From contig OZ271854.1 in assembly GCA_965601925.1 (NCBI GenBank), positions 2,208,001 to 2,272,000 of the forward strand: a DNA stretch of 64,000 bases. The letters run 5' to 3'. This DNA is from Alkalispirochaeta sp. (GTDB lineage Bacteria; Spirochaetota; Spirochaetia; DSM-27196; Alkalispirochaetaceae). Within the stretch, counting starts at the first letter, position 1, and each line of letters starts with the position of its first letter. The notes beneath the pieces were generated by a model. The model was not told where the DNA came from, did not search any database, and saw only the letters and a program-made list of their open reading frames with translations. Positions 7,524 through 48,422 of the stretch are shown here, in pieces. A program made the position numbers and the translations under genes.

Positions 7524-7526
7524 CCG

Positions 7527-8142: not shown

Positions 8143-8204
8143 CCTTTACATAGGTTCACGCATAATAGTCGATTTTGTGCTTTGGTGCTGAACGGTGGAC
8201 CCAA

Positions 8205-12055: not shown

Positions 12056-12071
12056 TGGCGCGTATTTTGCT
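12056..12071 (+). promoter_or_regulatory. Sigma-54 (-24/-12) promoter
   Basis: TGGCGCGTATTTTGCT: GG-N10-GC with TTGCT, just upstream of RBS GGAGGA and ATG 12095. Confidence 0.75.
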
Positions 12072-12094
12072 TCCTGACGATCGGAGGATGAAAA

Positions 12095-18200: not shown

Positions 18201-19564
18201 GCCCGCCTCCGTACCGCCGCCTCGATTGAGTCGTGACGAAAGACGATCGTGCCGGTTACCTCGTCGCGTTGAATGACCTCAGCGCGTTCCGCCTCGCGTA
18301 GGAGCGTTTCTCCCGAGTATTGCCCATACGCCGGCAGTTGAGCGACGAGCGACAGCGGGACCGGAGGGAGCAGGAGCGCCAGATACTCCAACATCGTCCG
18401 CGCCTCCGGCGACAACTCATCGATCTTGTGGTCTACGGGGTTTTCGGCTCGACGCGGTCCAGGTCGCGACCCATGCCCGAGATGAGCGAGTTGGCGCGCA
18501 GCCCGAGCGGTATCGACGATCGCCATGGGATTCCCGGGAGCCCGAGCGGCGACCCACGCCGCAAGACGTCGCTCCTCGCTACCGTGCCGGCCCGGGATAA
18601 GAAGCGATCGTAGGAGATCCTCGCTCTCTTCCGATGTCAGAGGCGCGACGGTGAGCTCTTCTAGTCGTAGACTCGAGGGAAGTTTTGATGACGCCGCAGG
18701 ACGGCCCAGAAAGACGACCAGTAATCTGTCCGGGTCATTTGCTACGATTCGCAAGACCGCCGCGCTTTGCTCGTCAAGCCATTGAAGGTCGTCAACGGCA
18801 AGTACGGTAGCTCCTTCCGCGGACCTCTCGGCCAGTCGACGTAGTAGGGCGGCGAGGGCGGCGGGAATGTCGATGCGGTGTTCCGCGGGGGCGCCCGTCG
18901 CCCACTCGTCGTCGATCAGTTCCTGGGAAAGAATCAAACGTAATACCCCGCGCCCTCCCTGGTGTCGTCCCGGAGAGGCCATGATCTCAGCCAAGACCTT
19001 CGACGCCGGAAGATCCTCCGCAGCGGACCGGGCGCGGAGCATTTGAACGAGAAGCGCCGAGTAGGTTAGATACGGTGAGCTACCGCTTTGGGGGCTCTTA
19101 TCGTACACCCAAATATCGCCGTCGCGTCGTTCGACCGCTTCCACCGATCGCCAGAGGTAGGTCTTACCGATCCCCGAGTCACCCGTCACCACTACCGCGT
19201 GTCCAGCCCCATTTCGGGCGGCGGTCACCAAAGCGACCAACCGCTCGAATAGTACCCTTCGGCTCGGTGGGATGCCGACTTGCGAGACGAGGAGACGCAC
19301 GTCGCGCTCCAAGTCAGCCGTAGTAGCGTAGCCGTCGCCGGTCGCAGTGACCGCCCGTGATATGATGCGATTGAGAATGCGCAACTGCACCGGGTCGATG
19401 TCGTCACGATCGACGACCCATCCGACCGTAGCTCCCTCTTGTGCGCCGGTGCTCACGATCGAGTATCCTACACGGCCGAGAGTACGGACACTCGTCGTCG
19501 AATCGGCGCGATCGATTCGACGTAACCACTCGGCCAGTGCGTCGGATAGTAGGAAGTAGTTCAT
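15212..19564 (-). CDS. STAND/AAA-ATPase sensor histidine kinase (AAA_16, helical region, PAS-like, HisKA, HATPase)
   Basis: Walker A GDSGIGKT; Walker B 'LAVDDLQWLD'; 'GNPMAI'; 'FRHDSI'; H-box 'VAHEIGN'; N-box 'LINLIKNACEA'; G boxes 'DQGRGM' and 'GTGLGLSI'. Confidence 0.88.
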   Translation of the reverse strand: MNYFLLSDALAEWLRRIDRADSTTSVRTLGRVGYSIVSTGAQEGATVGWVVDRDDIDPVQLRILNRIISRAVTATGDGYATTADLERDVRLLVSQVGIPPSRRVLFERLVALVTAARNGAGHAVVVTGDSGIGKTYLWRSVEAVERRDGDIWVYDKSPQSGSSPYLTYSALLVQMLRARSAAEDLPASKVLAEIMASPGRHQGGRGVLRLILSQELIDDEWATGAPAEHRIDIPAALAALLRRLAERSAEGATVLAVDDLQWLDEQSAAVLRIVANDPDRLLVVFLGRPAASSKLPSSLRLEELTVAPLTSEESEDLLRSLLIPGRHGSEERRLAAWVAARAPGNPMAIVDTARAARQLAHLGHGSRPGPRRAENPVDHKIDELSPEARTMLEYLALLLPPVPLSLVAQLPAYGQYSGETLLREAERAEVIQRDEVTGTIVFRHDSIEAAVRRRAAGSPERIAATANLLRDRVRNGDDRAAFVLARMLTGGVAAGDDETEERIASELRRLVTTEETLLILRSAADRALALLVPREALFFYEEALRLNVDIPSDRDTLLDLHLLAHQAAFTADDGHAMSRHFRFIRAHGAIEDVSRARSLWISRAYAKTWIRGAARIGWRVLADLGAVESDDFEDYDVRDKHIKQAYTFLARTRPTRLYRSIVRAAGPTNPRADLIAVTCAGLLFSLITVDPERLPVLAWITLKEALFNGPSPYSSFGFLYWSMLVSAEGGPLKRRQKVAQIGLDLARWFMRLHGDDIAYYDTRTATAACGSHWTVDIARSMSELDELYEDGMRKGYYQWATPCGNINLQNMLFCGRRLEQTISAMARHGRRLNELGLVRLNSSMIKYRQAAECLLGRAEDETTLASESDLFEGLKRSEDHLGLAGLQMLKTMIAVYAERPELAYRMFQDAAIDQIHSVTLYAHTVLWFYYGLVVAKVGNDDELDRAVKMTRRYGPHTSGPHRVYILEAERARRRGHKRRAGRLYRKARHAAIEDGFSNEGAITAEYHADFLLHDNPQSVEAIAALHEAHSLYERWGAKPAARRVSDRLRRLYERFDRYNAFPAQTSAQRTKRESKGVGESSTPHPSRRELERTRHYTQILFDATRDAILLVTDSLDVLFHNAVATPFLLIHSDDRVELRGDLARELAPFISSAIATSATREAELEWHNHVLMVSVNPVAGSPAPTAALGFRDVTTLRARERELVVADRMSSLGLLSSIVAHEIGNANHILRLNGETLRLLLSKIGTAESTEHPDRVDRALGSLLDASRRIGDILTQVREYAAGGRTDLWERLSPAEIGKRVVGFTRLLVNQHTDGIIYEAAETLPPVQAIPGRLEQALINLIKNACEALGDRSAKVALRISLDGKDYVSFAVCDQGRGMPVRAILDADGVTGNPFSSTRVSEGGTGLGLSIVRTIVEQHHGILRFGRTDIYTTVVEILVPIADRPRSQDA

Positions 19565-19667
19565 CGCCGGAGTCCTGTAAGGAATAACCGTAAGTGTTGC
19601 TTCTCAGTACATTAGTTCACAATGGCATTTTATGATACCATATCCAGTCACTATCAAAGGGGGGTAC

Positions 19668-20468
19668 ATGCATCGAGAAGCTTCGACCGTGATAGTCGTG
19701 CCCGGAGGACCCGGACTCCCTTATTCTTTCTACAAGGAGTTAGTCTCCGATATATCCGCGTTTTCTCGGCCCGTCACATACGCCCGACACGGACTGTTCC
19801 CGCATAACGATGGCGATTTTCCGCGATCGTTCGGTGAGGCGGCGGACGAGCTTGCCGACGCAGTGACGGAGGTCGGGGGTCGAGCCGTCTTTCTCGGCCA
19901 TTCGTTCGGTGCCGCCGTCGCATTAGAGGCGCTCTGTCGCGGCGTGGAGGTTGCCGGAGCCGTCCTGATAAGCGGCTTCTTCTCCGGACAAATGGTCCGT
20001 CGCGGCGTCCTTGCACGCATCGAAGCATTTCCTCATGAGTTCCACGAACGCTACAACGGTAGAGACGGCAGAGACCCGGAGACGATAGCCGAACTTCTCG
20101 CCACGCACTGGTTCCCCCGACATTTCTGTCGTGCTGAGTGGCCCGATTCATTTTCGGAAGGGCTCGAAACCTTAAATAGATCTTATCTCGAACACTTTCT
20201 GGGTGCGAATATTTTTGATCTTTCCGGAGTTGCGATGACGTGGGATCGTTCGGTCGATCTCGGACGAATCGATGTTCCTACGCTTCTCGTAACGGGACGG
20301 AACGACTACTTTCGACAGGAGGATGTCGAAGCGATGCACCACGCTATCCGCGGTAGCACGTTGTGGATCAGCGAGCCGTCGAGTCATTCGCCGTGGATCG
20401 AAGACCGAGAACCGACTATCGACGTAATTCGCTCTTTCGTGGAACGTCTCACACCGGATGGCCGTTGA
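19668..20468 (+). CDS. Alpha/beta hydrolase, proline iminopeptidase-like
   Basis: 'PGGPG', nucleophile 'GHSFG', 'GRND', 'SSHSPW'; GGGGG RBS. Confidence 0.85.
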   Translation: MHREASTVIVVPGGPGLPYSFYKELVSDISAFSRPVTYARHGLFPHNDGDFPRSFGEAADELADAVTEVGGRAVFLGHSFGAAVALEALCRGVEVAGAVLISGFFSGQMVRRGVLARIEAFPHEFHERYNGRDGRDPETIAELLATHWFPRHFCRAEWPDSFSEGLETLNRSYLEHFLGANIFDLSGVAMTWDRSVDLGRIDVPTLLVTGRNDYFRQEDVEAMHHAIRGSTLWISEPSSHSPWIEDREPTIDVIRSFVERLTPDGR

Positions 20469-21922
20469 TGATACGAACTCGGAGCGCATCCGAACCCATT
20501 CTCCTCGTCGACGATGAGCAAGAGGTCCTGGCGGCTCAACGGGAGCTACTCGAGATAGAGGGATTTGCCAACCTATCCGAGGCATCCTCCGCGTCGAGGG
20601 CGCGGGAGGTAATGAAAAAAGCGGATATCTCCTTGGTAGTCCTGGATTTGAAGTTGCCGAAGGAGTCGGGGTTGGAGCTTTTGGCGTGGATGAGAGAACG
20701 CTACCCGGATACGGAGGTTCTCGTGGTCACCGGTTCCTCGGATATCTCGGTCGCGGTCGAATGCATGCGCACCGGGGCGTATGATTTTTTGGTGAAGGGG
20801 AGCGATACCGCACGCCTTCCCGCCGCGGTTCGCAACGCCCTTGACCACCGTCTCACCACGTTGGAAAACGCTAGACTGCGACGCGCATTGTTACTCGGAA
20901 CGCTGAGCCGTCCCGAGAGCTTCGCCGATTTTGTGACTGACAACTCGACGATTCGTCACATTTTTGTCTACTTGGAGGCGGTGGCGGAAACATCCGATCC
21001 AATTTTGATCACCGGCGAGACCGGGGTCGGCAAAGAGGTGGTTGCGCGCGCGGTTCATCGTGCCAGCGGCCGTACCCGGCCGTTCGTTGCGGTCAATCTG
21101 GGAGGATTGGACGATCAGTCGATCAGCGACACGCTCTTCGGTCATAGTCGTGGCGCGTTCACCGGCGCGGTCGAGCGTCGCGACGGACTGATCCGCAGAG
21201 CCGCCGACGGGACGCTCTTTCTGGATGAGTTTGCCGAGATATCGCCTGAGTCGCAGGTGAAGTTACTGCGCCTCATCGACACGGGTGAGTTCATGCCTTT
21301 GGGAAGCGACAAGGTGTACACGTCACAAGCGCGTTTGATATTCGCCACCAACCGCAAGATAGAAAGTGAAACGGAGGCGGGTCGATTTCGACGCGATCTC
21401 TTTTTTCGGATTTCCAACCACTGGGTCGAGATACCGCCTCTGCGAAGTCGCGTCGGCGATATCCGCCCCCTTTTGGACCACCTTGCGGGCCGCCACGCCG
21501 AGCGGCTCGGACGCGCGCCGTTGCCCGTCACCGACGACGTCGTCGAGCGGATAACGGCTCTTCCGCTGACCGGGAACGTTCGCGAACTGGAGCGAATCGT
21601 CGTCGGCTCGTTGATACGGGGTGAGTGGCATCTCGACGGTACGCCCGCGCCGGTGGGGCGACGCGGCGTCGGCGATGCCGCCGAGAGTCCGGTCACCGTC
21701 GATACGTCGGACGACGGGGGGGACGCCGATGAGGTGATCTTCGGCGCAACGCTTCCGACTCCCGACATCCTCGTCGAGGCGCTCCTGCGCGAGGCGGTCC
21801 GTCGCCATCCGGGGAACCGCGCTGCGGCCGCCGCGGCCGTCGGCCTATCGCCCCAAGCCTTTGCCAACCGGTGGCGGCGTATGGCGGGTAAACTCAGTCA
21901 TGAGACCGGCCGGATACCGTGA
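20468..21922 (+). CDS. Sigma-54-dependent response regulator (NtrC family)
   Basis: Receiver 'LLVDDE...VLDLKLP'; 'GETGVGKE'; intact GAFTGA; 'LFLDE'; 'GNVRELE'; Fis-like HTH. TGATG overlap with the upstream hydrolase. Confidence 0.93.
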   Translation: MIRTRSASEPILLVDDEQEVLAAQRELLEIEGFANLSEASSASRAREVMKKADISLVVLDLKLPKESGLELLAWMRERYPDTEVLVVTGSSDISVAVECMRTGAYDFLVKGSDTARLPAAVRNALDHRLTTLENARLRRALLLGTLSRPESFADFVTDNSTIRHIFVYLEAVAETSDPILITGETGVGKEVVARAVHRASGRTRPFVAVNLGGLDDQSISDTLFGHSRGAFTGAVERRDGLIRRAADGTLFLDEFAEISPESQVKLLRLIDTGEFMPLGSDKVYTSQARLIFATNRKIESETEAGRFRRDLFFRISNHWVEIPPLRSRVGDIRPLLDHLAGRHAERLGRAPLPVTDDVVERITALPLTGNVRELERIVVGSLIRGEWHLDGTPAPVGRRGVGDAAESPVTVDTSDDGGDADEVIFGATLPTPDILVEALLREAVRRHPGNRAAAAAAVGLSPQAFANRWRRMAGKLSHETGRIP

Positions 21923-25645: not shown

Positions 25646-26974
25646 TCATCCTCGCTGCGGTACGACGAGCCGCCCCCGCGTCTCGTCGGTGACGGGGCGG
25701 CCGCGCAAAAGCACCCGACGAATCGTCCCACGCAGCGCTTGCCCGACGTAGGGACTGAGCTTGTGTTTGTCTCGGAGTTCCCCGTCGGTAAGCGGCGCCG
25801 GCGCGGTGTCCTCGACGATCACGAAGTCGGCGTCGTTCCCTACCTCGATCGAGCCTTTGCCGGGAAGCCGAAAGCGGTACGCCGGCATCTCGGCGAGCGT
25901 CTGCGCGATCCGCGGGAGCGGCACGTCCAAGGTCATGAGGGTGCGGAGGGTCGTCTGTACGCCGGCGATGCCGCCCCAGACGTCGAAGAAGTCATCGCGA
26001 TCCTTGAGATCCGCCGACGAGGGGGAGTGGTCGGACCCGACGGTATCGATCCGCCCGGCGATCAGTTCCTGTAGGAGCGCCCGGCGCGTCGCATCGTCCC
26101 TCAAGGGCGGCGCGCATTTTGCTCGCGGACCGATCGATTCCATGTCGCGATCGGTGAAGAAGAGATAGTGGGGGCACGTCTCGCACGATGCGTCCACTCC
26201 GTGTTGTGATGCGGCGCGGCGAACAAGCTCCACCCCTCGCCGGTTGGAGACGTGGACGATATGGACGCTGCACCCCGTCTCCTCGGCGTAGAGCAGCGCG
26301 CGACCGATCGCCTCCAACTCGGCGATCACGGGACGACTCTCGAGAAACGCGCGTACATCACGACGCCCCTCGCCGCGTAGCGTTGCGGTAAGGGTCGCGG
26401 TCATGGAGGCGCTTTCGGCGTGGAGGAGCACCGGCAGTCCGACTCCGGCGGCGATCTCCATGCCGCGGTAGAGCGTCACGTCGTCGGCATGGGTGAAGTC
26501 GTCGATACCGCTGGGGCACATGAACGCCTTAAATCCCGCAACGCCGCGATCGGCAAGCTCCTCCATATGCGGGAGGCTCTCGGGTGTGAGGCCGCCGTAG
26601 AGGGCGAAGTCGGTACGCGATCGAGCGTCGCACACGGCGCGTTTGGCGTCAAAGGCCGGGCCGTCCAGCGTCGGAGGCGATGAGTTGAGCGGCATATCGA
26701 TGAAGCAGACGCCCCCTCCGGCGGCAAGGGCGGCGGAGCCGGTGGCGACTCCCTCCCAGTGTGCACGCCCCGGATCGTTGAAGTGCACGTGCGAATCGAT
26801 CACGCCGGGAAAGACGAGCAAACCACGCGCATCGATTTCTTCGGGAGGGTTCGGTCCCGACGCTATTTCCGGCGCGAGCTCGACGATGCGTCCCCCGGCA
26901 ACGCCGATGTCCGTGCGTTCGATACCACTTCCGCGAACGACGTGCCCTCCGCGAACGAGTAGATCGTAGTTCAC
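25646..26974 (-). CDS. allB: Allantoinase
   Basis: 'DSHVHFNDPG', 'DMPLNS', 'GFKAFM', 'HAE', 'HVS', 'KCAPPLR', 'GSDHSP'; GTG start right after uraH. Confidence 0.9.
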   Translation of the reverse strand: MNYDLLVRGGHVVRGSGIERTDIGVAGGRIVELAPEIASGPNPPEEIDARGLLVFPGVIDSHVHFNDPGRAHWEGVATGSAALAAGGGVCFIDMPLNSSPPTLDGPAFDAKRAVCDARSRTDFALYGGLTPESLPHMEELADRGVAGFKAFMCPSGIDDFTHADDVTLYRGMEIAAGVGLPVLLHAESASMTATLTATLRGEGRRDVRAFLESRPVIAELEAIGRALLYAEETGCSVHIVHVSNRRGVELVRRAASQHGVDASCETCPHYLFFTDRDMESIGPRAKCAPPLRDDATRRALLQELIAGRIDTVGSDHSPSSADLKDRDDFFDVWGGIAGVQTTLRTLMTLDVPLPRIAQTLAEMPAYRFRLPGKGSIEVGNDADFVIVEDTAPAPLTDGELRDKHKLSPYVGQALRGTIRRVLLRGRPVTDETRGRLVVPQRG

Positions 26975-26976
26975 GC

Positions 26977-27351
26977 TCAGCTTCCTCGATAGGTGCTGTA
27001 CGACCAGGGCGTCACCAAAAGCGGCACGTGATATCCCACCTCCGTGTCGGCAATGCGGAACTCGATAACGACGCGCTCCAAGAACACGCCCGCATCGGGG
27101 TGGCGACGAGCGCGATAATAGTCGCCCACCGCAAAGACGAGGCGCCATGCGCCGGCGCGTACCGCGTTACCGGCAAGCAGAGGGGTATCGGTGCGACCGT
27201 CGGTGTTTGTGGTCGCCCGTGCAACGAGCGTATCGCCGCCGGACTCGTCCCGACTCGATGATGCTCCGAGGTACCACGCCTCGATCGCGACGCCCTCCGC
27301 AGGGTGTCCCAATGCGGTATCCAGGACGTGAGTACTCAGTCTCCCGCTCAC
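26977..27351 (-). CDS. uraH: 5-hydroxyisourate hydrolase
   Basis: 'LSTHVLDTALGHPA', 'TNTDGR', C-terminal 'YHVPLLVTPWSYSTYRGS'; GTGA overlap with the uricase stop. Confidence 0.95.
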   Translation of the reverse strand: MSGRLSTHVLDTALGHPAEGVAIEAWYLGASSSRDESGGDTLVARATTNTDGRTDTPLLAGNAVRAGAWRLVFAVGDYYRARRHPDAGVFLERVVIEFRIADTEVGYHVPLLVTPWSYSTYRGS

Positions 27352-28226
27352 CGACTCGCCTCGCGGGACACGGTACCGGTGATAATGCCGAAGGGTGAAT
27401 CGGTGCCGAAGTAGATCTCGTCCGGATTCTCCAGCCCGAGCGGCGATAGGTCGAATCGGATGTGGTGCTGATTGGGCATGGTAAACGTGATGCCGTCTAT
27501 CTCGGGAACCGCCTCGAGCACGCTCTCGCCCATGCGATAGAGCGTCGCCTGAACGCTCTTGCTCTCGTGGGTTGCAAAGATGGTGGCGACCGAATCGTAG
27601 ACGCGAGACCATATCGCGTTCCAGTCGGGACTCTTCGTGTCGACGGTTTCCACCGGGGTGTGCTCGGCCGCGATGTTCCACTCCGCCTCGACGGTAGTGG
27701 CGAAGATACGCTCGTCGGTCTCCGCCAACGTCGTATACTCGTCGCGGTAGAAGCCGGAGAAGCCGGATCCGGAGCTCTTGAAGACCTCCAACCCCGAGAT
27801 TCCTCCCCGCACCGAGAGGGCCTCGGCGTCGCGGCGTACCGTCGCGGTACGCTTTCCGTGCGCTTTTACAAAGGAGTGAGCGTGAGGCCGACCGTCCACC
27901 ACGATCCGCTCCCACCGCTCCATAACGATCGACGCTTCGACCCCGAAAACTTGAGGGAAGCGGGTGAAAAATCGATCGCAGAGGGCGATTCCGAACCGTT
28001 CCGGTGCGTCGAAATCGGTCAGGTGCGCGACGGCGTATACGGTGTTTTTCATCGTGTCCGTGGGGACGCAGGCCGAGTTGTCTCCATCCGTGTAGATCGC
28101 CGCGAAATCACCACGGAGGGTGATTTCCACCGTGTACTCGTGTACGGAGTGTGAGCTGTCGGTCCGAATAACCTTGGTGAGTCGCACCCGTTGTTTGCCG
28201 TACGAGTTATCGGTCAGATGAGCCAT
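27348..28226 (-). CDS. pucL: Factor-independent urate oxidase (uricase)
   Basis: 'YGKQRV', 'PTDTMKNTV', 'FSGFYRDEYTTL...RIFAT', 'SVQATLY', 'MPNQH'. Confidence 0.93.
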   Translation of the reverse strand: MAHLTDNSYGKQRVRLTKVIRTDSSHSVHEYTVEITLRGDFAAIYTDGDNSACVPTDTMKNTVYAVAHLTDFDAPERFGIALCDRFFTRFPQVFGVEASIVMERWERIVVDGRPHAHSFVKAHGKRTATVRRDAEALSVRGGISGLEVFKSSGSGFSGFYRDEYTTLAETDERIFATTVEAEWNIAAEHTPVETVDTKSPDWNAIWSRVYDSVATIFATHESKSVQATLYRMGESVLEAVPEIDGITFTMPNQHHIRFDLSPLGLENPDEIYFGTDSPFGIITGTVSREASR

Positions 28227-28764
28227 GTTCGTCCTCCTTGATGGCATCGGTCATTCTGAGCCACGCGATTTGGCCTATTTCGCCCAGTGCGGTGCCGATT
28301 TCGGTCGCGCGATCATTATTGAGCCGTATCGGAAAAGCGTTCAGAATCGCCTCTTTTCGGTTTTTGCGGGCACAGATTACGAAGGGAAAGCCGAACCGCT
28401 CGCGATACGCCGCGTTGTAGCGTTCAAACGCCGCTATCTCGTCGTCTTCGAGGGCGTCGAGGCCCGCCGCCGCCTGTTCGGAGGTAGACTCGCGACCGAG
28501 CCTCCCCTCCTGTGCGAGGCTCCCCACGAGGTCCGGGTGTGCATTAATGAGTGCGAGCCTCCGGTCGGTCGGTGCGTGCTCAACCACCTCCAGGCACGCG
28601 GCGTGAAACGCTCGCAGGGATGCGAAGGGTCGATGTGCGAGAGCGGCCTCAACGATCCACGGCGAATGTTCGAAGAAACCGCCGCAGAGACGGAGCGCTT
28701 CGGACATATCCATTGCGTTGAGCTCTTCCATCGTGATCGAAGTCGGATACGGGGTGGCGTTCAT
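28207..28764 (-). CDS. uraD: OHCU decarboxylase
   Basis: 'FEHSPW', 'LINAHPDL', 'STSEQAAAGL', 'NAAYRERFGFPFVICAR'. Confidence 0.93.
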   Translation of the reverse strand: MNATPYPTSITMEELNAMDMSEALRLCGGFFEHSPWIVEAALAHRPFASLRAFHAACLEVVEHAPTDRRLALINAHPDLVGSLAQEGRLGRESTSEQAAAGLDALEDDEIAAFERYNAAYRERFGFPFVICARKNRKEAILNAFPIRLNNDRATEIGTALGEIGQIAWLRMTDAIKEDEHGSSDR

Positions 28765-28831: not shown

Positions 28832-30163
28832 TCATCGAGGTTCTCCTCCGCCGGGCGTATCGGACGGAGCGACACCCTCCGGGTGGGCTGCGATCGTGCG
28901 GGCTAATACACGTGCGGCCAAGGCGATGTCCTCGGGCCGACTGAACTCCGCCGGGTTGTGGCTGATGCCGTCCCGGCTGGCGACGAATACCATCGCGGTA
29001 GGCAGGTGCGGCGCCAGTATCGCCGCGTCGTGGAGCGCCCCGCTCGCCACCGTCGGCATCTCCTCCCCGATTTCCACGGCGCTCGTGCGCAGCGCGTTAC
29101 AGATGTGCTCATCCAGAGGAGCGGGCGCGATCCTCTCGCTTCGTGAGATCGATATCGCGAGACGTCGTTTCTCGGCGGCTAAATGGACGAAACGGCGAAT
29201 TTCGGTCTCGCCGCGCTCCAACATCGACTCCTCGCGGGCGCGGAAGTCGATGGTAAGTCGCACTTCGCCGGCGATCACGTTGACCGCGTTGGGAGCCGCG
29301 GTGATGGACCCCACCGTGAGTACCGTAAAGGGCAGCTCCCGCGCAAAACGGCGTCCCATATCTTCCAGTATGGCGATGATCTCCGCCGCACCCGCCAAAG
29401 CGTCTCGCCGGCCCTCCATCCCAGTGGAACCCGCGTGATTCGCTTGGCCGGTAAGGGCGAGATCGAACTGCCTTCTCCCGTTGATCCGATTGACCGCCGC
29501 GATGGAACGCTCGGTGTCCCACAGGTGTAGCCCCTGCTCGGCGTGAATCTCTACAAAGCCGACGTACCGCGAGGCGTCGAAGCGTTGCGTCCACCCGGTC
29601 CCGGCTTCAATCGGCGGCGTGGGTTGAAGGAGGTGCTCTTGTACACCGTGATCGACTCCGGCCTCCAAATAGGTCGAGCCGTGGCGATTCTTAACCGTCG
29701 AGAGCGTCTCTACCCCGATCGCACCGGTCCACGCGCGGCTTCCGAGCATCCCAAGGCCGAAGGTGGTCCCCTCTTCCTCGGCGAATATGACGATCTCCAG
29801 GGGCAACGCCGGATTCGAACGCACGATCTCCAGCGGGACCACAATGCCCATCACACCGTCGTATTTGCCGCCTGAAGGGACCGAATCGATGTGCGACCCC
29901 GAGAGCCAGACGGGACGATCCCATCCGACATCCTTGTGGCGGATGTGTACGTTTCCCGCCGCATCCACGACGTGTTCCGCCCCTGCGGAGGCGGCCCGAG
30001 AGATGACGTAGTCGCGCGCCTCGCGCCACGAAGAAGAAAATGTCGGCCGGCTGTGTCCGACATCGGGCGGACTCTCGGAGAAGCGGGCGATCGCCTCGAT
30101 ATCGGCGTGGATTCGCTCCGCACTCGGTGCGTCGCCCCCGAGGGTTCCCGTGTGGTCGGTCAT
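28832..30163 (-). CDS. allC: Allantoate amidohydrolase-like Zn hydrolase (M20)
   Basis: 'GSHIDSVPSGGKYDG', 'AEEEG', 'EIHAEQG', 'ANHAGST', 'SGALHDA', 'GISHNPAE'; operon context; ATGA overlap with the upstream gene. Confidence 0.82.
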   Translation of the reverse strand: MTDHTGTLGGDAPSAERIHADIEAIARFSESPPDVGHSRPTFSSSWREARDYVISRAASAGAEHVVDAAGNVHIRHKDVGWDRPVWLSGSHIDSVPSGGKYDGVMGIVVPLEIVRSNPALPLEIVIFAEEEGTTFGLGMLGSRAWTGAIGVETLSTVKNRHGSTYLEAGVDHGVQEHLLQPTPPIEAGTGWTQRFDASRYVGFVEIHAEQGLHLWDTERSIAAVNRINGRRQFDLALTGQANHAGSTGMEGRRDALAGAAEIIAILEDMGRRFARELPFTVLTVGSITAAPNAVNVIAGEVRLTIDFRAREESMLERGETEIRRFVHLAAEKRRLAISISRSERIAPAPLDEHICNALRTSAVEIGEEMPTVASGALHDAAILAPHLPTAMVFVASRDGISHNPAEFSRPEDIALAARVLARTIAAHPEGVAPSDTPGGGEPR

Positions 30164-31143
30164 ACGCCGAACTGGTCGCGCCATTCGGCGCCGGTCTGTT
30201 CCATCGTGCTCTCGGCCGCGGAACGCCGCAGGCGGTGAAGTTGGGGCATGCCCAACTGCCACTCCTGCATCCAATCTCGGGCAAAGATGCCTCGTTCGGT
30301 TTCGCGAAAGATCTCGCGCACGGCGTCGTCGTTAATGACGCGAGGACCCCGGGTCCGGACCGCGAACTCGCAGGTACGGCTGGAGCGTGTAGTGAGGTAG
30401 CTTTCGATACCGTGCTCGTCCATGACGTCGATGACGCTTCGCAGAGAACGGATCGACTTGGCGTAGGCGAAACTCGGCGCGTACCCGTTGTCCACCATCG
30501 TTTGAAAGCACAGCCGCATGAGGTGTATGACCCCACCGTAGAGAATCTGCTCCTCGAAGTTGTCGCCCTCGGTCTCGTGCTGAAAGGTGAGGTTTACCAC
30601 ACCTGCGCGCGTCGAGCCGACCGCCTTGGAAAGTGCGAGGGCGATCTCGAGTGCGTCGCCGGTCGCGTCGTGGTCGACGCTGACGCAGCCGTAGATACCC
30701 TCGCCCTTGAGATACTTCTCTCGCACGAACGCTCCCGGGGCGTTCGGGACGAACAGCACCGTGTTCACGTCCTCGGGCGGTACGATTGCGCCGTACAGCA
30801 CATTGAAGCCGTGACAGAAGCACAATGTCTGACCCGCCCGTAGATTGGCCTTGATATGATCGCGATAGACCGCCGGTTGGGCGGGGTCGGCGAGTTCGAT
30901 TAACACGATGTCCGCCTTACGAACGGCATTAGCGTAGTCGAAGACTTCGAACCCGTCGGCCTCGGCCGCGTCTCGTGACGCACTCTCGCCCGCCGGTCTC
31001 GTTCCTACCACGACCGTGCATCCCGAGTCGCGGGCGTTGGTAGCCTGAGCCTTTCCCTGAATACCGTAGCCCAGGACCGCCAACACTTTGCCGTCGAGTA
31101 TCGAAAGGTCCACGTCCTCGTCGCGATAAATTTTCTCGTCCAT
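30160..31143 (-). CDS. Divergent ketol-acid reductoisomerase (IlvC) homologue, probably a different activity
   Basis: Full-length class I KARI likeness ('GYGIQG', 'FCHGFNV', 'RAGV..LTFQHETEGDNFEEQ..YGG', 'GPRVI'), but PKGPG is PNAPG and AYFECLHE is AYAKSIRS. Confidence 0.85.
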   Translation of the reverse strand: MDEKIYRDEDVDLSILDGKVLAVLGYGIQGKAQATNARDSGCTVVVGTRPAGESASRDAAEADGFEVFDYANAVRKADIVLIELADPAQPAVYRDHIKANLRAGQTLCFCHGFNVLYGAIVPPEDVNTVLFVPNAPGAFVREKYLKGEGIYGCVSVDHDATGDALEIALALSKAVGSTRAGVVNLTFQHETEGDNFEEQILYGGVIHLMRLCFQTMVDNGYAPSFAYAKSIRSLRSVIDVMDEHGIESYLTTRSSRTCEFAVRTRGPRVINDDAVREIFRETERGIFARDWMQEWQLGMPQLHRLRRSAAESTMEQTGAEWRDQFGV

Positions 31144-31155
31144 CGGTGCCTCCTG

Positions 31156-31968
31156 TTACTCCCCCAACGCGATTTCGCGGTTGACGTTTTTGTAGTAGAT
31201 ATAGCGTGTGGCGGTAGGGCCGGTTGCGTAGTAGCTCTGGGGGCAAAATGGTCCCATCCATATGAAGTCGCTCGCCTCCACCTCCATCCATGCATCGTCC
31301 AAGTAGTAGAGTCCCTTCCCCCCAAGAACGTATAGGCCGTGCTCCATCACGTGCGTTTCGGTCACCGGTAGGCTGTGGCCGGTCTGAAAGGTGAAGATGT
31401 TCATCGCCATGTCAAAGGCGAGCTCGTCGGGGATGAGGGTTTGGAGTAGCGCCCCCTCATCGCCCATGTAGACCTCGCCGGCCACATCGCGCTCGTTCGC
31501 AATGACGGGAGCAAACTCGTCGATACCCGGCGCCGTCTCGTACCGTTTTCGTAAGAGGAGGAGTGTGGCGTCGTCGGTCGCTTCAACCCGATATCCGTAC
31601 GACGGCGGGATCAGGGCGTAGCCGCCGGGGGCTACGGTATGGGGACCGAGGGCGGTGTGGTGTGACGACGCATCGCCGGTGAAGCCCACTACGCCGCGAC
31701 CGCCTGAAAGGGTAAGACGCGCGCTGCCGCTCAAAAGAAAGATAAAGTGCTCGATCTCGCCGTCGCTCGGATGCTCTCCCACCGCTCCCGCATCGAGCTC
31801 CAGTCGATATTCGACGAACTGGGCCCCCAGAGCCGGTGCTGCCAAGATGTGTACCCGCGCCTCGGGCCACTCCGGAAGTCTGGAGTACGGAACACCTTCC
31901 AAGGGGATCAATGCGTAGCGCGCCTTTACGCGCGTTCGACTCGTCAAAAGCTCGGTCTGTTTTCTCAC
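31156..31968 (-). CDS. allE: (S)-ureidoglycine aminohydrolase (bicupin)
   Basis: 'FDMAMNIFTF..G.SLPVTETHVMEHGLYVLGGKGLYYL', 'FIWMGPFCPQ', 'YIYYKNVNR'. Confidence 0.92.
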   Translation of the reverse strand: MRKQTELLTSRTRVKARYALIPLEGVPYSRLPEWPEARVHILAAPALGAQFVEYRLELDAGAVGEHPSDGEIEHFIFLLSGSARLTLSGGRGVVGFTGDASSHHTALGPHTVAPGGYALIPPSYGYRVEATDDATLLLLRKRYETAPGIDEFAPVIANERDVAGEVYMGDEGALLQTLIPDELAFDMAMNIFTFQTGHSLPVTETHVMEHGLYVLGGKGLYYLDDAWMEVEASDFIWMGPFCPQSYYATGPTATRYIYYKNVNREIALGE

Positions 31969-32017: not shown

Positions 32018-34915
32018 CTAATCGTCGCCCATGGCGCGCCAACACTCTTCGGCGGTTATCGGGAGGCGCATGATTCGTACTCCTACAGCGTCCCGCACCG
32101 CATTGGCGATCGCTGCGGGGGTCGCGGTAGTGGTCAACTCGCCTAACGCCTTTGCGCCCAAGGGGCCCGCATCGTCCGCTTCTTCAAAAAATACCGTTTC
32201 CAGGCGGCCGACGTCTGCAATTGAAGGGACGCGATAGTCTCGAAATGCCGGGTTGGTCACCCGTCCCGACTCGTCGAGGACAAGATGTTCACTCAACGCG
32301 TAGCCGATCGACTGTACCGTCGCGCCCTCCGCCTGCCCCCGGCAGACTCGCGGATTCAGAAGCGTTCCGCAGTCAATCGCCTGTACGATGTCGAGCACCT
32401 CTACGCGACCCGTCGCCTCTTCGACGCGAACGCGCGCGCCTACCGCGGCAAAGCTCATCGATACGCGGTCGTGAGCAAAGCGGTCGACGGTGACGCTCAG
32501 CTCCTCTTTGAACCGTCGCGCCCCCTCCACCAACTCCCCCGGGGTTAGAAGCGGCGTCGCATCCCGCGACCCCGAGGAGTCGATGACGCCCTGCATCGAC
32601 AGCATCAGTGCGTCCGATGAGGTGCCCACCAACCGCGCCGCGACTGCGAGGATGCGCGACCGGAGGCGCGTTGCGGCGATGTATACCGCTTTGCCGGCGA
32701 TATAGGCGGTCGCCGACGCGTACGCTCCCGAGTCCTCCGGGGCGTTGTGCGTGTCGCCGCTGGAGATATCGATCGTGCTGTACGGCAAACCGAGAACGTC
32801 GGCGGCGATTTGAGCGAGGGTGGTATCGGACGCCGTACCGATATCCGCCGTCGCGGTGGAAAGCGATACTCCGCCGGCGGTGTAGGCAATCGTCGCTCCC
32901 GAGATATGGATATTGGCGAGGCCGCTTCCGATGGTGGAGATTGCGAGACCCGAACCGCATCGCCAACCGTGGGATCTTTCTGCGTTTCGGGATCGGTCGG
33001 TATCGATCTCTGCGAGGCGGCCGGCGACGTGGTCAATGCATCGATCGAGAGCGTAAGAACCGATTTTGTGGTCGCGATCCTCTTGTTCTTCGAGGTGAAG
33101 CGGCGCGTCGGCACCTACCGCATTGCGACGGCGAAACTCCGCCGGATCGATAGCGAGGCGCCGTGCGAGCTCGTCCATGAGGGACTCCACTGCATATGCT
33201 GTTTGCGCCGCGCCGTAGCCGCGAAAAGCGCCGGCCGGCACCGTGTTGGTGTAGACCGCCCGACCGCGGGTGTGCTTGTTGGGACACACATAGAGGGCGA
33301 GCGCCTCGAAAGCGGCACACTCCAGCACATCGTAGGAGTGGTTTCCGTACGCACCCCCGTTCGCAATAAAGTCAAGGGAAAGCGCGGTAAGGCGTCCGTC
33401 GCGCGTCGCGCCGCCGCGGACGGTGATATGCATGGGGTGGCGCGTGTTGGTGGATGTAAACTCCTCGTGACGGTCGAACTCCCAGTGCACGGGACGCGCG
33501 AGGCGCAGCGCCGCAAAAGCCGCGATATCCTCGCACAGCACCTCTTGTTTGTTGCCGAAGCCGCCGCCTACCAACGGCTTGAAGAGGCGAATGCTCTCCT
33601 CCGGCCGATCCAATACGCGCGCGACGGTGCGCCGCGCGAGATGGGGAACTTGCGTGCTCGATCGTATGACGAGGGTGCCGTCGGCCTCGGCCCATGCGGT
33701 GGCCGCGTGCGGCTCCATGTGTGTATGTTGCTGCCGCGGCGTCCGCACGGTGAGCTCGACCACCTCAGCGGCTTCCTCATAGCCACGCTCTATCGAGCCC
33801 ACGCGGTGGTCGATCTCACCGATAAGGTTGCGGGTGCGGTCGGCTATCCGAAAGGACTCCTCCTCGGGATGAATCACCGGCGCGCCCTCCTCGAGAGCTT
33901 CGAGAGGATCAAAGACCGCCGGCAGCGCCTCGTAGTCGATCTCCACCAGCCGAGCGGCGCGACGCGCGATCATCGCGGACTCGGCCACCACAATCGCCGC
34001 TCGTTGCCCGACAAAGCGCATCGTATCGTCCAGGAGATAGGTGTCAAAGGCGTCGCGCGGCTCGGCGGGGTGGCACGCGGTCGTATAGGGGATACGGGGA
34101 ACGTGCTCGTGCCAAAACACGTCGAGTACTCCCGGGAGGGCGCGCGCCGCCTCCGCTCGCACGGCCGTGATGCGCGCGTGGGCGTAAGGCGAGCGCACGG
34201 CGCTGATGTACGCAGGCTCACCGGGCGTCGTCGAGAGAAAGTCGCCGGTGAAAGAGGGGGTTCCCGTCACTATGTCCCGACCGTGGCGATTGGGAAGAGA
34301 CATCCCAACACTGCCGGACGTCGCGTCCGACGCTCTCGTGACTCCGATTGCCGGCCGCGGCGTACCGGTTTCGACATCGACTACCTCTTCCACCCCGGCG
34401 AGCCCCGCCCGTTGATGCGTTACAATTGCATCGGCGCTGCGTTGTATCGACTGCCAGCCGGTGCAACGGCAGATGTTACCTTTGGTGCGCCACGCAATAT
34501 CGCGGTGTTCGCCGGCGTGCGGCGAAGCGAGGGTCATAATCATCCCGGCGGTGCAGTACCCGCACTGAAATCCCTCCTCGGCGAGGAACGCCGCCTGGAC
34601 GGGGTGTAGCGACGGTGGAGGCGTCGCATCGTTTCCGTGGTGCTCCGCGTGTCTCCCGTCGGCCGCGTTTCCCCGAGCGGCCCCCGCCAACCCTTCGATA
34701 GTGGTGATGCGACGGTCGCCGGCGCGCCATGCCGGAAGAATACACGATTGAACCGCCGCCCCGTCGAGCCACACGGTGCAGCACCCGCAGTCTCCCGCCT
34801 CGCAGCCGCGTTTCGGCCCCACGACGCCGGCGTCGCGTAGGGCGGTCAGAAGACTCGTTCCCGGTTCGTGGTCGAGGGTGCGTTCCGCGCCGTTGATCTG
34901 AAGGCGTGTCGTCAT
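32018..34915 (-). CDS. Xanthine dehydrogenase-family molybdopterin subunit fused to 2Fe-2S domain
   Basis: 'GCEAGDCGCC', 'QCGYC', 'NICRC'; 'GGGFGNK', 'AFRGYG', catalytic 'KALGE'. Confidence 0.9.
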   Translation of the reverse strand: MTTRLQINGAERTLDHEPGTSLLTALRDAGVVGPKRGCEAGDCGCCTVWLDGAAVQSCILPAWRAGDRRITTIEGLAGAARGNAADGRHAEHHGNDATPPPSLHPVQAAFLAEEGFQCGYCTAGMIMTLASPHAGEHRDIAWRTKGNICRCTGWQSIQRSADAIVTHQRAGLAGVEEVVDVETGTPRPAIGVTRASDATSGSVGMSLPNRHGRDIVTGTPSFTGDFLSTTPGEPAYISAVRSPYAHARITAVRAEAARALPGVLDVFWHEHVPRIPYTTACHPAEPRDAFDTYLLDDTMRFVGQRAAIVVAESAMIARRAARLVEIDYEALPAVFDPLEALEEGAPVIHPEEESFRIADRTRNLIGEIDHRVGSIERGYEEAAEVVELTVRTPRQQHTHMEPHAATAWAEADGTLVIRSSTQVPHLARRTVARVLDRPEESIRLFKPLVGGGFGNKQEVLCEDIAAFAALRLARPVHWEFDRHEEFTSTNTRHPMHITVRGGATRDGRLTALSLDFIANGGAYGNHSYDVLECAAFEALALYVCPNKHTRGRAVYTNTVPAGAFRGYGAAQTAYAVESLMDELARRLAIDPAEFRRRNAVGADAPLHLEEQEDRDHKIGSYALDRCIDHVAGRLAEIDTDRSRNAERSHGWRCGSGLAISTIGSGLANIHISGATIAYTAGGVSLSTATADIGTASDTTLAQIAADVLGLPYSTIDISSGDTHNAPEDSGAYASATAYIAGKAVYIAATRLRSRILAVAARLVGTSSDALMLSMQGVIDSSGSRDATPLLTPGELVEGARRFKEELSVTVDRFAHDRVSMSFAAVGARVRVEEATGRVEVLDIVQAIDCGTLLNPRVCRGQAEGATVQSIGYALSEHLVLDESGRVTNPAFRDYRVPSIADVGRLETVFFEEADDAGPLGAKALGELTTTATPAAIANAVRDAVGVRIMRLPITAEECWRAMGDD

Positions 34916-35760
34916 CGTTTTCTCTCATCAAGGAGTCGATTCCAGGCTCGGACGGCCGCTACACGGACCATATGGTGCCGGTAGACGGCGCTCCCGTGGC
35001 CGTCGTCTAAAAGGGGATGGGCGGCACACACCGCATCGGCGGCCTGCCGTATTTCTTTGACGTCGCTCTCCGCCGCTAAAGAGCGACACACCGGGTATTC
35101 TATCGCCGCCGACACGACGATGCGCGGTGTATGCGTCCCGGCGGCGTTACGCCGGGCGTTCCCGCTCTTGCGGACGATAGCCATGGCCGTGGCGTGGCTC
35201 GTCGGGGTGTAGCTCATCTTTTCCAGAGCGTATCGATCCGCGAGAGCCTCCGCCGGTATGCGGATCGCCCGTAAGTACTCTCCGGGTTGCAGGATCGTCT
35301 TGCGAACGCCGACTTGAAAGGTTCCGGCGGGGACGATCCGTGTCGTCCCGCCCGGCCTCACCAACTCGTAGGTTGCACCGAGAATGCAACATACCGGTGC
35401 CATCATCGACTTCGCGTAGGCCAAACAGATGTTTCCGCCCACGGTAGCGACTTCCCACGTCTTGAAGCTCGAAGAGAGGGTATCGATGGCGCGCTCGAAG
35501 AGCGGCCCTGCACCTCCCAAGAGGTCCACGCGCTTCAAAAGCTCGCGGTACGTGCACGTCGCTGCGATCCGTATCCCCGTCTCGCTGCTCGAAAGCGGTT
35601 CCGCCTCGATCGCCGATAGGTCGATGAGGCGCGTTACACCGGGTTGTCTCTCCGAGAAGAGCCACGTCCCACCGGCAACGTAGGCGTCGCCCGCGCTCCA
35701 AGGGGGAATCTCAGTCTCGCTATCGGGCCTGACTATTGTCTGCACATCGATAAGATCCAC
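34912..35760 (-). CDS. Xanthine dehydrogenase-family FAD-binding subunit
   Basis: 'AGGTWL', 'ATVGGNIC'; ATGA overlap with the Mo subunit. Confidence 0.88.
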   Translation of the reverse strand: MDLIDVQTIVRPDSETEIPPWSAGDAYVAGGTWLFSERQPGVTRLIDLSAIEAEPLSSSETGIRIAATCTYRELLKRVDLLGGAGPLFERAIDTLSSSFKTWEVATVGGNICLAYAKSMMAPVCCILGATYELVRPGGTTRIVPAGTFQVGVRKTILQPGEYLRAIRIPAEALADRYALEKMSYTPTSHATAMAIVRKSGNARRNAAGTHTPRIVVSAAIEYPVCRSLAAESDVKEIRQAADAVCAAHPLLDDGHGSAVYRHHMVRVAAVRAWNRLLDERKR

Positions 35761-35790: not shown

Positions 35791-37164
35791 TCAGCCATTG
35801 ATCAGACGCACCGCGGCGCGGTTGTGTCGCGCCGTAAGCGCCGCGACGTCGACGTCTACCAGGGTGCCGCCGGCCACCCTTTGGACTCCGTTGATAACCG
35901 AGAACGAGGCTGCAGGAGCGTTGCAGAAGACGAGTGCGGCGACCGGGTCGTGAACCGCGCCGCCGGCGAAGGGGAGGGAGTCGAGGCGGAATCCCACGAG
36001 ATCGGCCGCCGCTCCGGCTTCCAACCGTCCGATGTCTTCGCGCCCCAACACCGACGCGCCGCCCCGTGTGGCGAACCACAACGCCCGGCGCGCCGTTACA
36101 TCCATCTCGCCGCCGAGCCGTTGCAGGAGCATCGCTTGGCGTACCTCGGCGATCATGTTCGATCCGTCGTTTGAGGCCGACCCGTCCACGCCGATGCCGA
36201 CGCGCATCCCCGCATTATGCATCGCCGTTACCGGCGCGATTCCCGATCCAAGTCGCATGTTGGAGCTGGGACAGTACGCCATTCCGCAGCGGCACGTTCC
36301 CATCCTATCGATCTCTTTCGGATGGGGGTGGACCATATGGGCGAACCAGACGTCCTCTCCCATCCACTCGACTTGCTCGGCAAACTCAACCGGCGTTGCA
36401 CCGACAGTTTGCCGGCAATACTCCTCCTCATCGCGCGTCTCCGCCAAATGAGTGTGAAGGTGGACGCCGTAGCTCCGGGCGAGGCGAGCGCTCTCTTTCA
36501 TGAGGGTCGAGGAGACCGAAAAGGGCGAGCACGGCGCAACGACGATCCGCGTCATGGCGTACTCCTCCGAATCGTGATACGCCTCGATCACCCGTCGCGT
36601 GTCGCGGAGAACAGCCTCTTCTTCCTCGACGACGCTATCGGGAGGCAGTCCACCCGCCGACTCGCCGACCGACATCGCACCTCGAGAACAGTGGAAGCGC
36701 AATCCCATCTCCTCGACGGCTTCGATCTCATCGTCGACGCGCGTTCCGGCGGGCCAGAGGTACGTGTGATCCGCGGCGCACGTACACCCCGAAAGCATGA
36801 GCTCGGCGGCGGCAATCTGTGAGGCGGTGTACAACGCTTCGCGGTCCATGCGCGCCCATACGGGGTAGTGCGTCACCAGCCAGTCGAACAGACGTGCGTC
36901 TTGCCCCGCCGGGATGTTCCGCGTGAGGGTCTGAAAAAAGTGGTGGTGCGTATTGACGAGCCCGGGAATAACCACGTGGCCGCGAGCATCTATCTCGCGG
37001 TCGGCCGTAATCCGGCGGCGAGTCATGAGCGTCTCGATTTCTGCGTGGGGACCGATTGCGAGTATTCGATTGCCATCAATCAGTACCGATCCGTTGTTAA
37101 TCTCGCGGCAATCGTCGTCGAATGTGGCCAGGACATCGGCCTGCCGCACCACGGTGTATTTCAT
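35791..37164 (-). CDS. 8-oxoguanine deaminase-like amidohydrolase
   Basis: 'NTHHHFFQTLTR', 'APCSPFS', 'HTHLAET', 'WFAH', 'GVDGSASND'; ATG 37164 has no SD sequence. Confidence 0.8.
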   Translation of the reverse strand: MKYTVVRQADVLATFDDDCREINNGSVLIDGNRILAIGPHAEIETLMTRRRITADREIDARGHVVIPGLVNTHHHFFQTLTRNIPAGQDARLFDWLVTHYPVWARMDREALYTASQIAAAELMLSGCTCAADHTYLWPAGTRVDDEIEAVEEMGLRFHCSRGAMSVGESAGGLPPDSVVEEEEAVLRDTRRVIEAYHDSEEYAMTRIVVAPCSPFSVSSTLMKESARLARSYGVHLHTHLAETRDEEEYCRQTVGATPVEFAEQVEWMGEDVWFAHMVHPHPKEIDRMGTCRCGMAYCPSSNMRLGSGIAPVTAMHNAGMRVGIGVDGSASNDGSNMIAEVRQAMLLQRLGGEMDVTARRALWFATRGGASVLGREDIGRLEAGAAADLVGFRLDSLPFAGGAVHDPVAALVFCNAPAASFSVINGVQRVAGGTLVDVDVAALTARHNRAAVRLING

Positions 37165-43787: not shown

Positions 43788-44722
43788 GCTCTACCGTCCA
43801 TTTCGCGTATCGAGTCGAGGATAATCGCCTTAAAGCGATTCACATCGAGTTCAAATGCTACGTCTGCGTTCGGTTCCTCGCCGGTCACACCGTAGACATC
43901 CACTACCGTTCGACCGCGCGTAAACACCCCGCGCGTCTCTACCTCTACGCGGAGGCGGCGGGTCGTCAGGATATCGGGCTCGACCGAGGCCATGACCGCC
44001 AACGCATCGTGGAGCGGCGCTCCGGCGACACCGAAATTTTCATCATAGGCGGCGGCAAAGAACCGCAAGAGCGGGGCTACAATGCGCGAGACGCGCCCGC
44101 CTCGGTCTTCGATGGCGTCGATCTCCTCTACGGTAAACAGTGCGCGGTTGGTGACGTCCAGCCCGACCATTGTGATGGGGCGGCCGCAGCCGAAGACGAT
44201 TTCAGCCGCCTCAGGGTCGACGTAGATGTTGAACTCCGCAGCAGGAGTGACGTTGGAGTCGTAGACCGCGCCGCCCATCAAGACGATGCGTTCGATCTTC
44301 TCGGCGACGGCGGGGTTTTTCCGCAACAGAAGCGCTATGTTGGTCAGCGGTCCCGTCGGAACCACCGTCACCGGCTCCTCGGCGGCCATGAGCGTGTGTT
44401 CCAGAAATTCGACGGCGTGCTCCTCGCGAGGCACGATCGTCGACTCGGGAAGATCGGCACCGTCCAGTCCCGATACACCGTGAATATTGGGCGCCGTCTC
44501 GAGCTCGCGCGTCAAAGGATAATCGCATCCCCGAGCGAGCGGCGTGTCCGTTTCGCGCATTAGCGTGAGCACCTTGCCGGCGTTGGCGAACGTCCGCTCC
44601 CCCGTTTGGTTGCCCGCCACGGTGGTTACACCGAGGAGCTCGATATCGGGATGCGATGAGGCCACCATCATGGCCATCATGTCGTCGTGACCGGGATCGC
44701 AGTCGAGTAGTATGCGTTTCAT
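43784..44722 (-). CDS. Inosine/uridine-preferring nucleoside hydrolase
   Basis: 'DCDPGHDD', 'GPLTN', 'AEFNIYVDPEAA', 'LHDAL'. Confidence 0.93.
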   Translation of the reverse strand: MKRILLDCDPGHDDMMAMMVASSHPDIELLGVTTVAGNQTGERTFANAGKVLTLMRETDTPLARGCDYPLTRELETAPNIHGVSGLDGADLPESTIVPREEHAVEFLEHTLMAAEEPVTVVPTGPLTNIALLLRKNPAVAEKIERIVLMGGAVYDSNVTPAAEFNIYVDPEAAEIVFGCGRPITMVGLDVTNRALFTVEEIDAIEDRGGRVSRIVAPLLRFFAAAYDENFGVAGAPLHDALAVMASVEPDILTTRRLRVEVETRGVFTRGRTVVDVYGVTGEEPNADVAFELDVNRFKAIILDSIREMDGRA

Positions 44723-46805: not shown

Positions 46806-46808
46806 CGA

Positions 46809-48335: not shown

Positions 48336-48422
48336 CGGTGCTCTTCCGCGCCGGGCGCACGAGTAGCCGGCGCGGGACGCATCTCCGCGCTGTATCGTAC
48401 GGTCGAAGCCGTCGACTCGGCG

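Follow-up and report, generated by a model that had tools for sequence, protein, structure and literature searches.

Why should a gene that resembles ilvC lie in the middle of an operon for purine breakdown? The question is raised by a 64,000-nucleotide stretch of Alkalispirochaeta sp. DNA (assembly GCA_965601925.1, contig OZ271854.1, positions 2,208,001 to 2,272,000), here termed the window, in which a gene of the ketol-acid reductoisomerase (KARI) family sits between allE and a gene for an M20-family amidohydrolase. A preliminary description of this DNA had proposed that the encoded protein lost its isomerase step and now either oxidizes ureidoglycolate to oxalurate or reduces glyoxylate. 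Sequence comparisons indicate that the gene represents a real, repurposed KARI subfamily in purine catabolism, for which a reaction can be predicted. The argument centers on two features:

30160..31143, minus strand: KARI (IlvC)-family paralogue of 327 aa with an NADP-type loop (Arg49/Ser54/Ser56) and a remodeled active site, identified by profile and structure-database matches.
31149..31154, minus strand: AGGAGG ribosome-binding site of the KARI paralogue, immediately behind the allE stop codon.

The AGGAGG ends 5 nt from the ATG of the paralogue, and an ATGA overlap (30160-30163) joins its stop codon to the ATG of the M20 gene. A scan for promoters and terminators gave no signal exceeding that of shuffled sequences. 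Both Pfam domains, KARI_N and KARI_C, are present in the protein, which places it in the KARI/IlvC family, and its closest PDB matches are class I KARIs. It scores 280 against the NCBIfam ilvC model TIGR00465, above the cut-off of 226, and 326 against PRK05479, below the cut-off of 336. Thus the initial reading of a class I KARI-like gene between allE and allC was borne out in its open reading frame, domains, and overlap, and every motif quoted with it was found in the translation: GYGIQG (residues 25-30), HGF (111-113), PNAPG (133-137), ETEGDNFEEQ (190-199), AYAKSIRSLR (226-235), and RSSRTC (253-258). When compared with five homologues, the gene is 45-52% identical at third codon positions and 91-93% identical at second positions. 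Because third positions diverge while second positions stay conserved, the gene is under strong purifying selection and is not a chance open reading frame.

The remodeling of the active site was traced across 160 loci, comprising the best 80 of 187 from a scan of GTDB genomes and the best 80 of 244 from a scan of metagenomes. These loci are mutually related and were selected by identity, and hence are not independent of one another; the best 120 homologues are 76-94% identical. All 160 encode Asn134, Asn195, Glu197, Tyr202, Lys229, Arg232, Ser233, Arg235, and Arg256. Three of these residues replace canonical ones at equivalent positions, with Asn134 standing for Lys130, Lys229 for Glu226, and Ser233 for Glu230. 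At positions 134, 197, 229, 232, and 233, the short ilvC genes of the same genomes instead encode Lys, Gly, Glu, His, and Glu, respectively (11/11; of 20 stretches taken for this comparison, eight were not parsed and one was of the long type). Glu226 of canonical KARIs contributes to the second Mg site, and both Lys130 and the active-site His have established roles in the enzyme. The His (His111) is kept in all 160 loci, as are Asp194 and Glu198, and Ser255 is kept too. According to the available excerpt of PMC13753588, the Staphylococcus aureus counterparts of Asp194 and Glu198, Asp190 and Glu194, coordinate the pair of Mg ions, and Glu230 also serves as a Mg(II) ligand. The isomerase step has probably been lost, because the missing ligands belong to the metal site that is tied to isomerization.

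A tree of homologues against IlvC, which had been suggested at the outset, separates the two groups: the paralogues form a clade with 100% support in the Shimodaira-Hasegawa-like approximate likelihood ratio test (SH-aLRT), apart from ilvC genes of the same genomes. This tree and the one described below are quick trees whose support comes from SH-aLRT only.

The genomic context of the paralogue is nearly invariant. Where enough flanking sequence was available, allE lies upstream in 74 of 76 GTDB loci and 60 of 62 metagenome loci, and an M20 gene lies downstream in 74 of 75 and 64 of 65, respectively. One or the other adjoins the paralogue at 158 of the 160 loci, and so the homologues, whose enrichment in purine clusters had been proposed as a check, are fixed beside these genes. 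Genes for xanthine dehydrogenase subunits and adenine deaminase often lie nearby, as does a cluster for pyrimidine degradation; the neighbors included no conserved additional gene that would handle oxalurate or glyoxylate. One locus (L084, 1-2576) differs in having a ygeW carbamoyltransferase gene directly before the paralogue and an OHCU decarboxylase gene behind it, with neither allE nor M20 adjacent; this locus is a single short contig.

The subfamily gene is rare. Named carriers are metagenome-assembled genomes (MAGs) of Spirochaetota, Planctomycetota, and Verrucomicrobiota, plus one unassigned. Samples of 400 Spirochaetota genomes and 300 genomes from the phylum of genome G012 held no member besides the genome that contains the window, and known carriers were possibly excluded from these draws. 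No member was found on viral contigs, and plasmids gave only matches of at most 44% identity. A plasmid of Sagittula stellata (L276, 2940-10969) carries a cupin gene labeled allE and an M20 hydrolase gene together with genes for dihydropyrimidinase, a RidA protein, and an ABC transporter, with no urate genes alongside.

A separate ilvC gene, for which the preliminary description had suggested checking, was indeed found. The genome that contains the window is 96.7% complete and has one other KARI (C1:2852142-2853620, at 2.85 Mb), a plant-type long enzyme with intact motifs matching the chloroplast structure 1QMG. A second KARI match, 28-42% identical and in a few cases split or partial, occurs in all 50 of the carrier genomes tested, which were picked from 79 GTDB carriers for longer contigs and spread. 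Because the active-site signature is invariant, allE and M20 are adjacent, a second KARI is present, and AllD is missing (see below), we conclude that the paralogue is a repurposed KARI-family protein tied to purine catabolism and not IlvC. As a separate observation, the housekeeping KARI of this genome, which is close to chloroplast KARIs, stands away from the ilvB/ilvD cluster. Outside the window are both the KARI at 2.85 Mb and the ilvB-like and ilvD genes (near 3.93 Mb), consistent with the early remark that no other ilv gene is nearby.

The paralogue is accompanied in the window by the following genes:

25646..26980 (start approximate), minus strand: allantoinase AllB, above the TIGR03178 cut-off.
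26977..27354 (start approximate), minus strand: 5-hydroxyisourate hydrolase, by profile matches.
27348..28247, minus strand: uricase (factor-independent urate hydroxylase), by profile matches.
28207..28764, minus strand: OHCU decarboxylase, by profile matches.
28832..30163, minus strand: M20 amidohydrolase of the hydantoinase/carbamoylase family (AllC-like), 443 aa, carrying RxQ and SGALHD motifs; its ATG overlaps the paralogue stop codon.
31156..31968, minus strand: AllE-type cupin of the (S)-ureidoglycine aminohydrolase family, scoring 261 against TIGR03214 (cut-off 200) and 192 against the bifunctional allantoicase model (cut-off 350).
32018..34915, minus strand: xanthine-dehydrogenase-family Fe-S/molybdopterin subunit, by profile matches below equivalog cut-offs.
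34912..35760, minus strand: FAD subunit of a molybdo-enzyme, by profile match.
35791..37164 (start approximate), minus strand: 8-oxoguanine-deaminase-family amidohydrolase, above the PRK08203 cut-off.

These family matches agree with the names first given to the neighbors, from the allE-type cupin and M20 gene through the OHCU decarboxylase, uricase, and 5-hydroxyisourate hydrolase to the allantoinase, the xanthine-dehydrogenase family, and the deaminase. The label allC holds by family and position, but the protein scores below AllC cut-offs and is without the two allantoate-specificity marks discussed below. Two other regions of the window were named by eye. Upstream of the operon and on the same strand (42402-49481) are nucleoside-type ABC transporter, nucleoside-hydrolase-like, and ADP-ribosylglycohydrolase-like genes. 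At 15212-21922, a histidine-kinase-like gene encoding 1450 aa with an ATPase domain is divergent from a hydrolase gene and a gene for a sigma-54 response regulator, with lipoprotein-like genes around them.

How, then, do the carriers dispose of ureidoglycolate? Three fates of this compound are described in the accessible parts of PMC3793230 and PMC3527362, namely AllD, ureidoglycolate amidohydrolase (UAH), and a lyase. The carriers are MAGs, in which single gene absences prove little: AllD was found above its cut-off in none of 51 genomes, weaker AllD matches occur in 14 of the 51 and some Ldh_2 protein in 33 of 50, and the AllA family appears in seven of 50 carriers, always at 27-51 bits. Neither AllD nor AllA was matched at any of the 160 loci. 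The preliminary description was also right that the operon in the window has no AllA, since the two AllA-family matches of the genome reach only 43 and 34 bits and are distant, and that AllD is missing, as no Ldh_2/AllD gene exists anywhere in this genome. The operon M20 gene is the sole member of its family in 28 of 51 genomes, and allantoate amidohydrolase (AAH) and UAH are reported to be strictly specific in the excerpt available of PMC13751858; therefore, no separate UAH is evident. Urease was found in six of 51 genomes, urea carboxylase in two (with at most 10 candidates scored per genome), and malate synthase in one, and no glyoxylate carboligase scored above cut-off in the genome that contains the window. 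Judging from gene content, carriers appear to have no known route for disposing of ureidoglycolate and in most cases to be unable to use urea or glyoxylate. A route through a urea-releasing lyase or an allantoicase is disfavored by the rarity of urease and urea carboxylase.

Several other loci of this genome are of note. A second, anaerobic-type purine cluster (C1:1022479-1043744) contains ygeW along with ssnA-, ygfK-, and xdh-like genes recognized by eye and by weak matches; the cell holds both the uricase route and the reductive route. Two allF/allG-like sets are present (C1:2342835-2348114 and C1:5051224-7433, across contig ends). One is accompanied by genes resembling allH and a uracil permease, with a carbamate kinase gene about 14 kb away, and the other lies beside ABC transporter and amidase genes. 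A weak ureidoglycolate-lyase-family gene (C1:1428775-1430942) follows genes that by eye resemble dihydroxyacetone kinase subunits and a sugar ABC transporter, and likely has another function.

The paralogue is part of a wider family that differs in its cofactor loop. When the sister sequence P0122 served as query, the search uncovered proteins that share the active site but carry an acidic, NAD-type loop. The signature is present in 89 of 96 aligned proteins. Of these 89, 44 carry Asp at position 56, another 34 an Arg plus Ser/Thr loop, and the remaining 11 other forms. Named members come from Aggregatilinea lenta (66% identical), Anaerolineaceae, the clostridium Wukongibacter baidiensis, Bathyarchaeota, and Ranarchaeia. 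Ser residues in the KARI loop are a marker of NADP use. The choice between Arg and an acidic residue in this loop also sets the cofactor, according to the accessible text of PMC13753588. In a quick tree, the clade with NADP-type loops that includes the protein of the window arises within an NAD-type grade, which suggests that its loop was gained from NAD-type ancestors. Separately, P0122, P0335, P0337, P0342, and P0346, one of them from Bathyarchaeia, are partly remodeled relatives that have gained Lys229 and carry a Glu-Ala/Thr-Pro-Gly motif, with three retaining Glu233. Their branches lie below the clade with the full signature, and they could represent a further group put to new use.

What reaction might such an enzyme catalyze? 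The view of the preliminary description that this is a neofunctionalized paralogue in purine catabolism is upheld by the linkage, the second KARI, and the lack of AllD, and the two reactions that it left unranked both still stand. We rank ureidoglycolate oxidation above glyoxylate reduction. Specifically, the paralogue is predicted to be an NADP+-dependent (S)-ureidoglycolate dehydrogenase that replaces AllD and yields oxalurate, a proposal with roughly an even chance of being correct. The M20 enzyme and AllE would convert allantoate to (S)-ureidoglycolate, and one M20 enzyme, AllE, and a dehydrogenase reproduce the allD-allC-allE layout of E. coli. The paralogue would retain the hydride-transfer half of the KARI reaction through His111, Asp194, Glu198, and one Mg2+, while Lys229 from the partner subunit would fill the second Mg2+ site and abolish alkyl migration. 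The carboxylate and ureido tail of the substrate could be held by the new invariant residues Asn134, Asn195, Glu197, Tyr202, Arg232, Arg235, and Arg256. The product of KARI is an (R)-2,3-dihydroxy acid, and IpOHA is an oxamate-type inhibitor of the enzyme. (S)-ureidoglycolate would share its C2 geometry with this product; the label differs only because N and COOH exchange priorities. Oxalurate, being an N-substituted oxamate, should resemble IpOHA. Oxidation of ureidoglycolate would also yield NADPH and avoid free glyoxylate. Points in favor of this reaction are the fixed linkage to allE and M20, the lack of AllD above cut-off and of strong AllA matches, the scarcity of enzymes for urea and glyoxylate, the precedent of other repurposed KARI folds, the AllG found in 12 of the 19 spirochaete carriers, and the allFGH-like genes and carbamate kinase of the genome that contains the window. 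The oxalurate might then be excreted, used by AllFGH where present, or hydrolyzed by the altered M20 enzyme, the last being the weakest step.

Several observations weigh against ureidoglycolate oxidation. The first concerns substrate supply. The marks of AAH, in the excerpt available of PMC13751858, are a QxR motif together with a Gly at the site that is Tyr423 in UAH. The operon M20 proteins have GRxQ in 125 of 125 aligned sequences and SGALHD in 123 (the other two are gapped), whereas E. coli AllC has GQRR and SGAGHD. We provisionally take the Tyr423 site to fall within the SGALHD motif, where all aligned partners have Leu and neither Gly nor Tyr. Because the partner thus departs from the AAH specificity marks, the assumed supply of substrate is not certain. 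Most likely it still acts on allantoate, because the cupin scores as AllE and needs ureidoglycine, and a second activity is possible. This M20 protein is fused in one open reading frame with OHCU decarboxylase at 29 of the 114 loci holding both. The assignment of the cupin also carries some doubt, as its best PDB match is 1SQ4 and not E. coli AllE.

Other objections concern the enzyme itself and the fate of its product. The pocket assignments derive from alignment; a monomer structure model (predicted local distance difference test score 70.8, predicted template modeling score 0.58) was weak in its C-terminal half and was not used. The derived NADP-type loop would fit a reductase working in aerobes, and E. 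coli AllD prefers NAD+, as stated in the accessible part of PMC3527362. AllFGH is the oxalurate enzyme of E. coli (available text of PMC11326118). AllG, although found in those 12 spirochaete carriers, is missing from all 31 non-spirochaete carriers tested, and the AtzH-like family reaches its cut-off in none of 50. The genome that contains the window has six amidase-family genes, allFGH-like genes, and a carbamate kinase, but no gamma-glutamyltransferase-family (HpxW) gene. Its allFGH genes are located 100 kb away, next to a uracil-permease-like gene, and their substrates could be other ureides. Finally, no oxalurate-using gene known to date accompanies the operon, and the majority of carriers appear to have none anywhere in the genome.

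The dehydrogenase reading can be extended to a new end-route made up of these three genes, although we consider this extension doubtful. The rebuilt M20 enzyme would strip a carbamoyl group from both allantoate and oxalurate, AllE would deaminate, and the one-metal KARI would oxidize, giving oxamate, three ammonia, and NADPH with no urea and no glyoxylate. In Anaerolineae, clostridia, and archaea, the NAD-type relatives could perform this oxidation ahead of transcarbamoylases, so that ATP is made.

The best of the competing explanations is that the paralogue is an NADPH-dependent glyoxylate reductase making glycolate, with the M20 enzyme removing both carbamoyl groups or ureidoglycolate decaying spontaneously. 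The altered M20 motifs fit this proposal, as do the scarcity of malate synthase noted above and the derivation of the NADP-type loop in a uricase-bearing lineage. A further argument for it, and against the dehydrogenase, is a Clostridium butyricum cluster in which an AAH-type M20 gene, allE, a D-2-hydroxyacid dehydrogenase gene, and a Tyr-type M20 gene occur together. This route would release all four nitrogens. It nevertheless needs a dual AAH/UAH activity, contrary to the reported strict specificity, or else a spontaneous loss of urea in cells mostly without urease. In addition, the genome that contains the window already has six D-2-hydroxyacid dehydrogenases, one of them 45% identical to the clostridial enzyme, and the new polar residues, numerous and invariant, would seem to exceed the needs of a two-carbon substrate. 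On balance, we regard glyoxylate reduction as rather unlikely.

A different ureide or chemistry might also be involved, such as oxidation of hydroxyglycine to oxamate following decarbamoylation, reduction of oxalurate formed by side reactions of urate, or an epimerase or lyase with catalytic bound NAD(P). Uncertain upstream specificities leave room for such reactions, KARI-fold enzymes with unusual redox-coupled chemistry are known, and at locus L084 the paralogue follows ygeW, with neither allE nor M20 next to it. We find these possibilities distinctly unlikely, given that a urea-releasing lyase would waste nitrogen in the 45 of 51 genomes that lack urease, that the cupin scores as AllE and is without a His and an Arg found in a protein labeled as bifunctional, and that L084 is one short contig. 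The weakest explanation, an ordinary KARI or an inactive remnant lying in the operon by accident, draws on the ilvC cut-off and on database entries that name the homologues ketol-acid reductoisomerase, and is very improbable; canonical IlvC, a pseudogene, and a chance neighborhood are all rejected on account of the replaced residues, the linkage, the second KARI, the separate clade, and the purifying selection.

Because the paralogue passes the ilvC cut-off, such proteins are misnamed in databases and in metabolic models. The subfamily offers a concrete candidate for purine clusters without AllA, AllD, or UAH, in which the fate of ureidoglycolate is unexplained, and two cultured organisms, A. 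lenta and W. baidiensis, carry the same active site. If the predicted reaction is correct, a Glu-to-Lys swap would have turned a two-metal isomeroreductase into a simple oxidoreductase, which is relevant both to the KARI mechanism and to its engineering. Our literature search, which left subscription journals mostly uncovered and supplements unread, found no KARI described for the catabolism of ureidoglycolate, oxalurate, or allantoin, and a mention in a gene-context table is possible. A 2026 review of uric acid enzymes nowhere mentions KARI or reductoisomerase, and the portion available of the UGTCase paper (PMC4016543) contains no reductoisomerase or ilvC.

How does this subfamily compare with known systems? 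It shares with class I IlvC (EC 1.1.1.86; PDB 5E4R, 7Q03, 8EP7, 4XDY, 5W3K) its domains, length, Rossmann motif, His111, Asp194/Glu198, and Ser255, and is about 35-44% identical to short canonical enzymes. It differs in Asn134, Lys229, and Ser233, in the new Glu197, Tyr202, Arg232, Arg235, and Arg256, in its purine-operon context, and in always having a companion KARI in the genomes tested. E. coli AllD (EC 1.1.1.154; accessible part of PMC3527362) has the same reaction as that predicted here and the same place in the pathway beside allC and allE. However, AllD has the unrelated Ldh_2 fold, prefers NAD+, and is coupled to AllFGH and AllK, whereas AllG is absent from most carriers. Since the paralogue matches neither Ldh_2 nor TIGR03175, it is no member of the AllD family and at most an analogue.

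The C. butyricum cluster (NZ_AP019717, L278) has the same order of allE, oxidoreductase, and M20 as the window, but it has both a Gly-type and a Tyr-type M20 gene, and a D-2-hydroxyacid dehydrogenase takes the place of the KARI fold. This cluster (4543-13156), in which one M20 protein has the Tyr motif of plant UAH, is itself a candidate for a bacterial UAH route. Precedent for a repurposed KARI fold comes from ApnO and BurG, which carry out 2-hydroxy/2-oxo acid redox chemistry (excerpt available of PMC13753588). Like the paralogue, both apply the KARI scaffold to a new redox-linked reaction, and ApnO also reduces hydroxypyruvate and oxomalonate. BurG structures score far below canonical KARIs in matches to the paralogue. 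As far as the same excerpt describes them, ApnO and BurG keep the two-metal centre and BurG keeps the Glu230 equivalent, whereas the paralogue of the window loses Glu230 and sits in purine catabolism.

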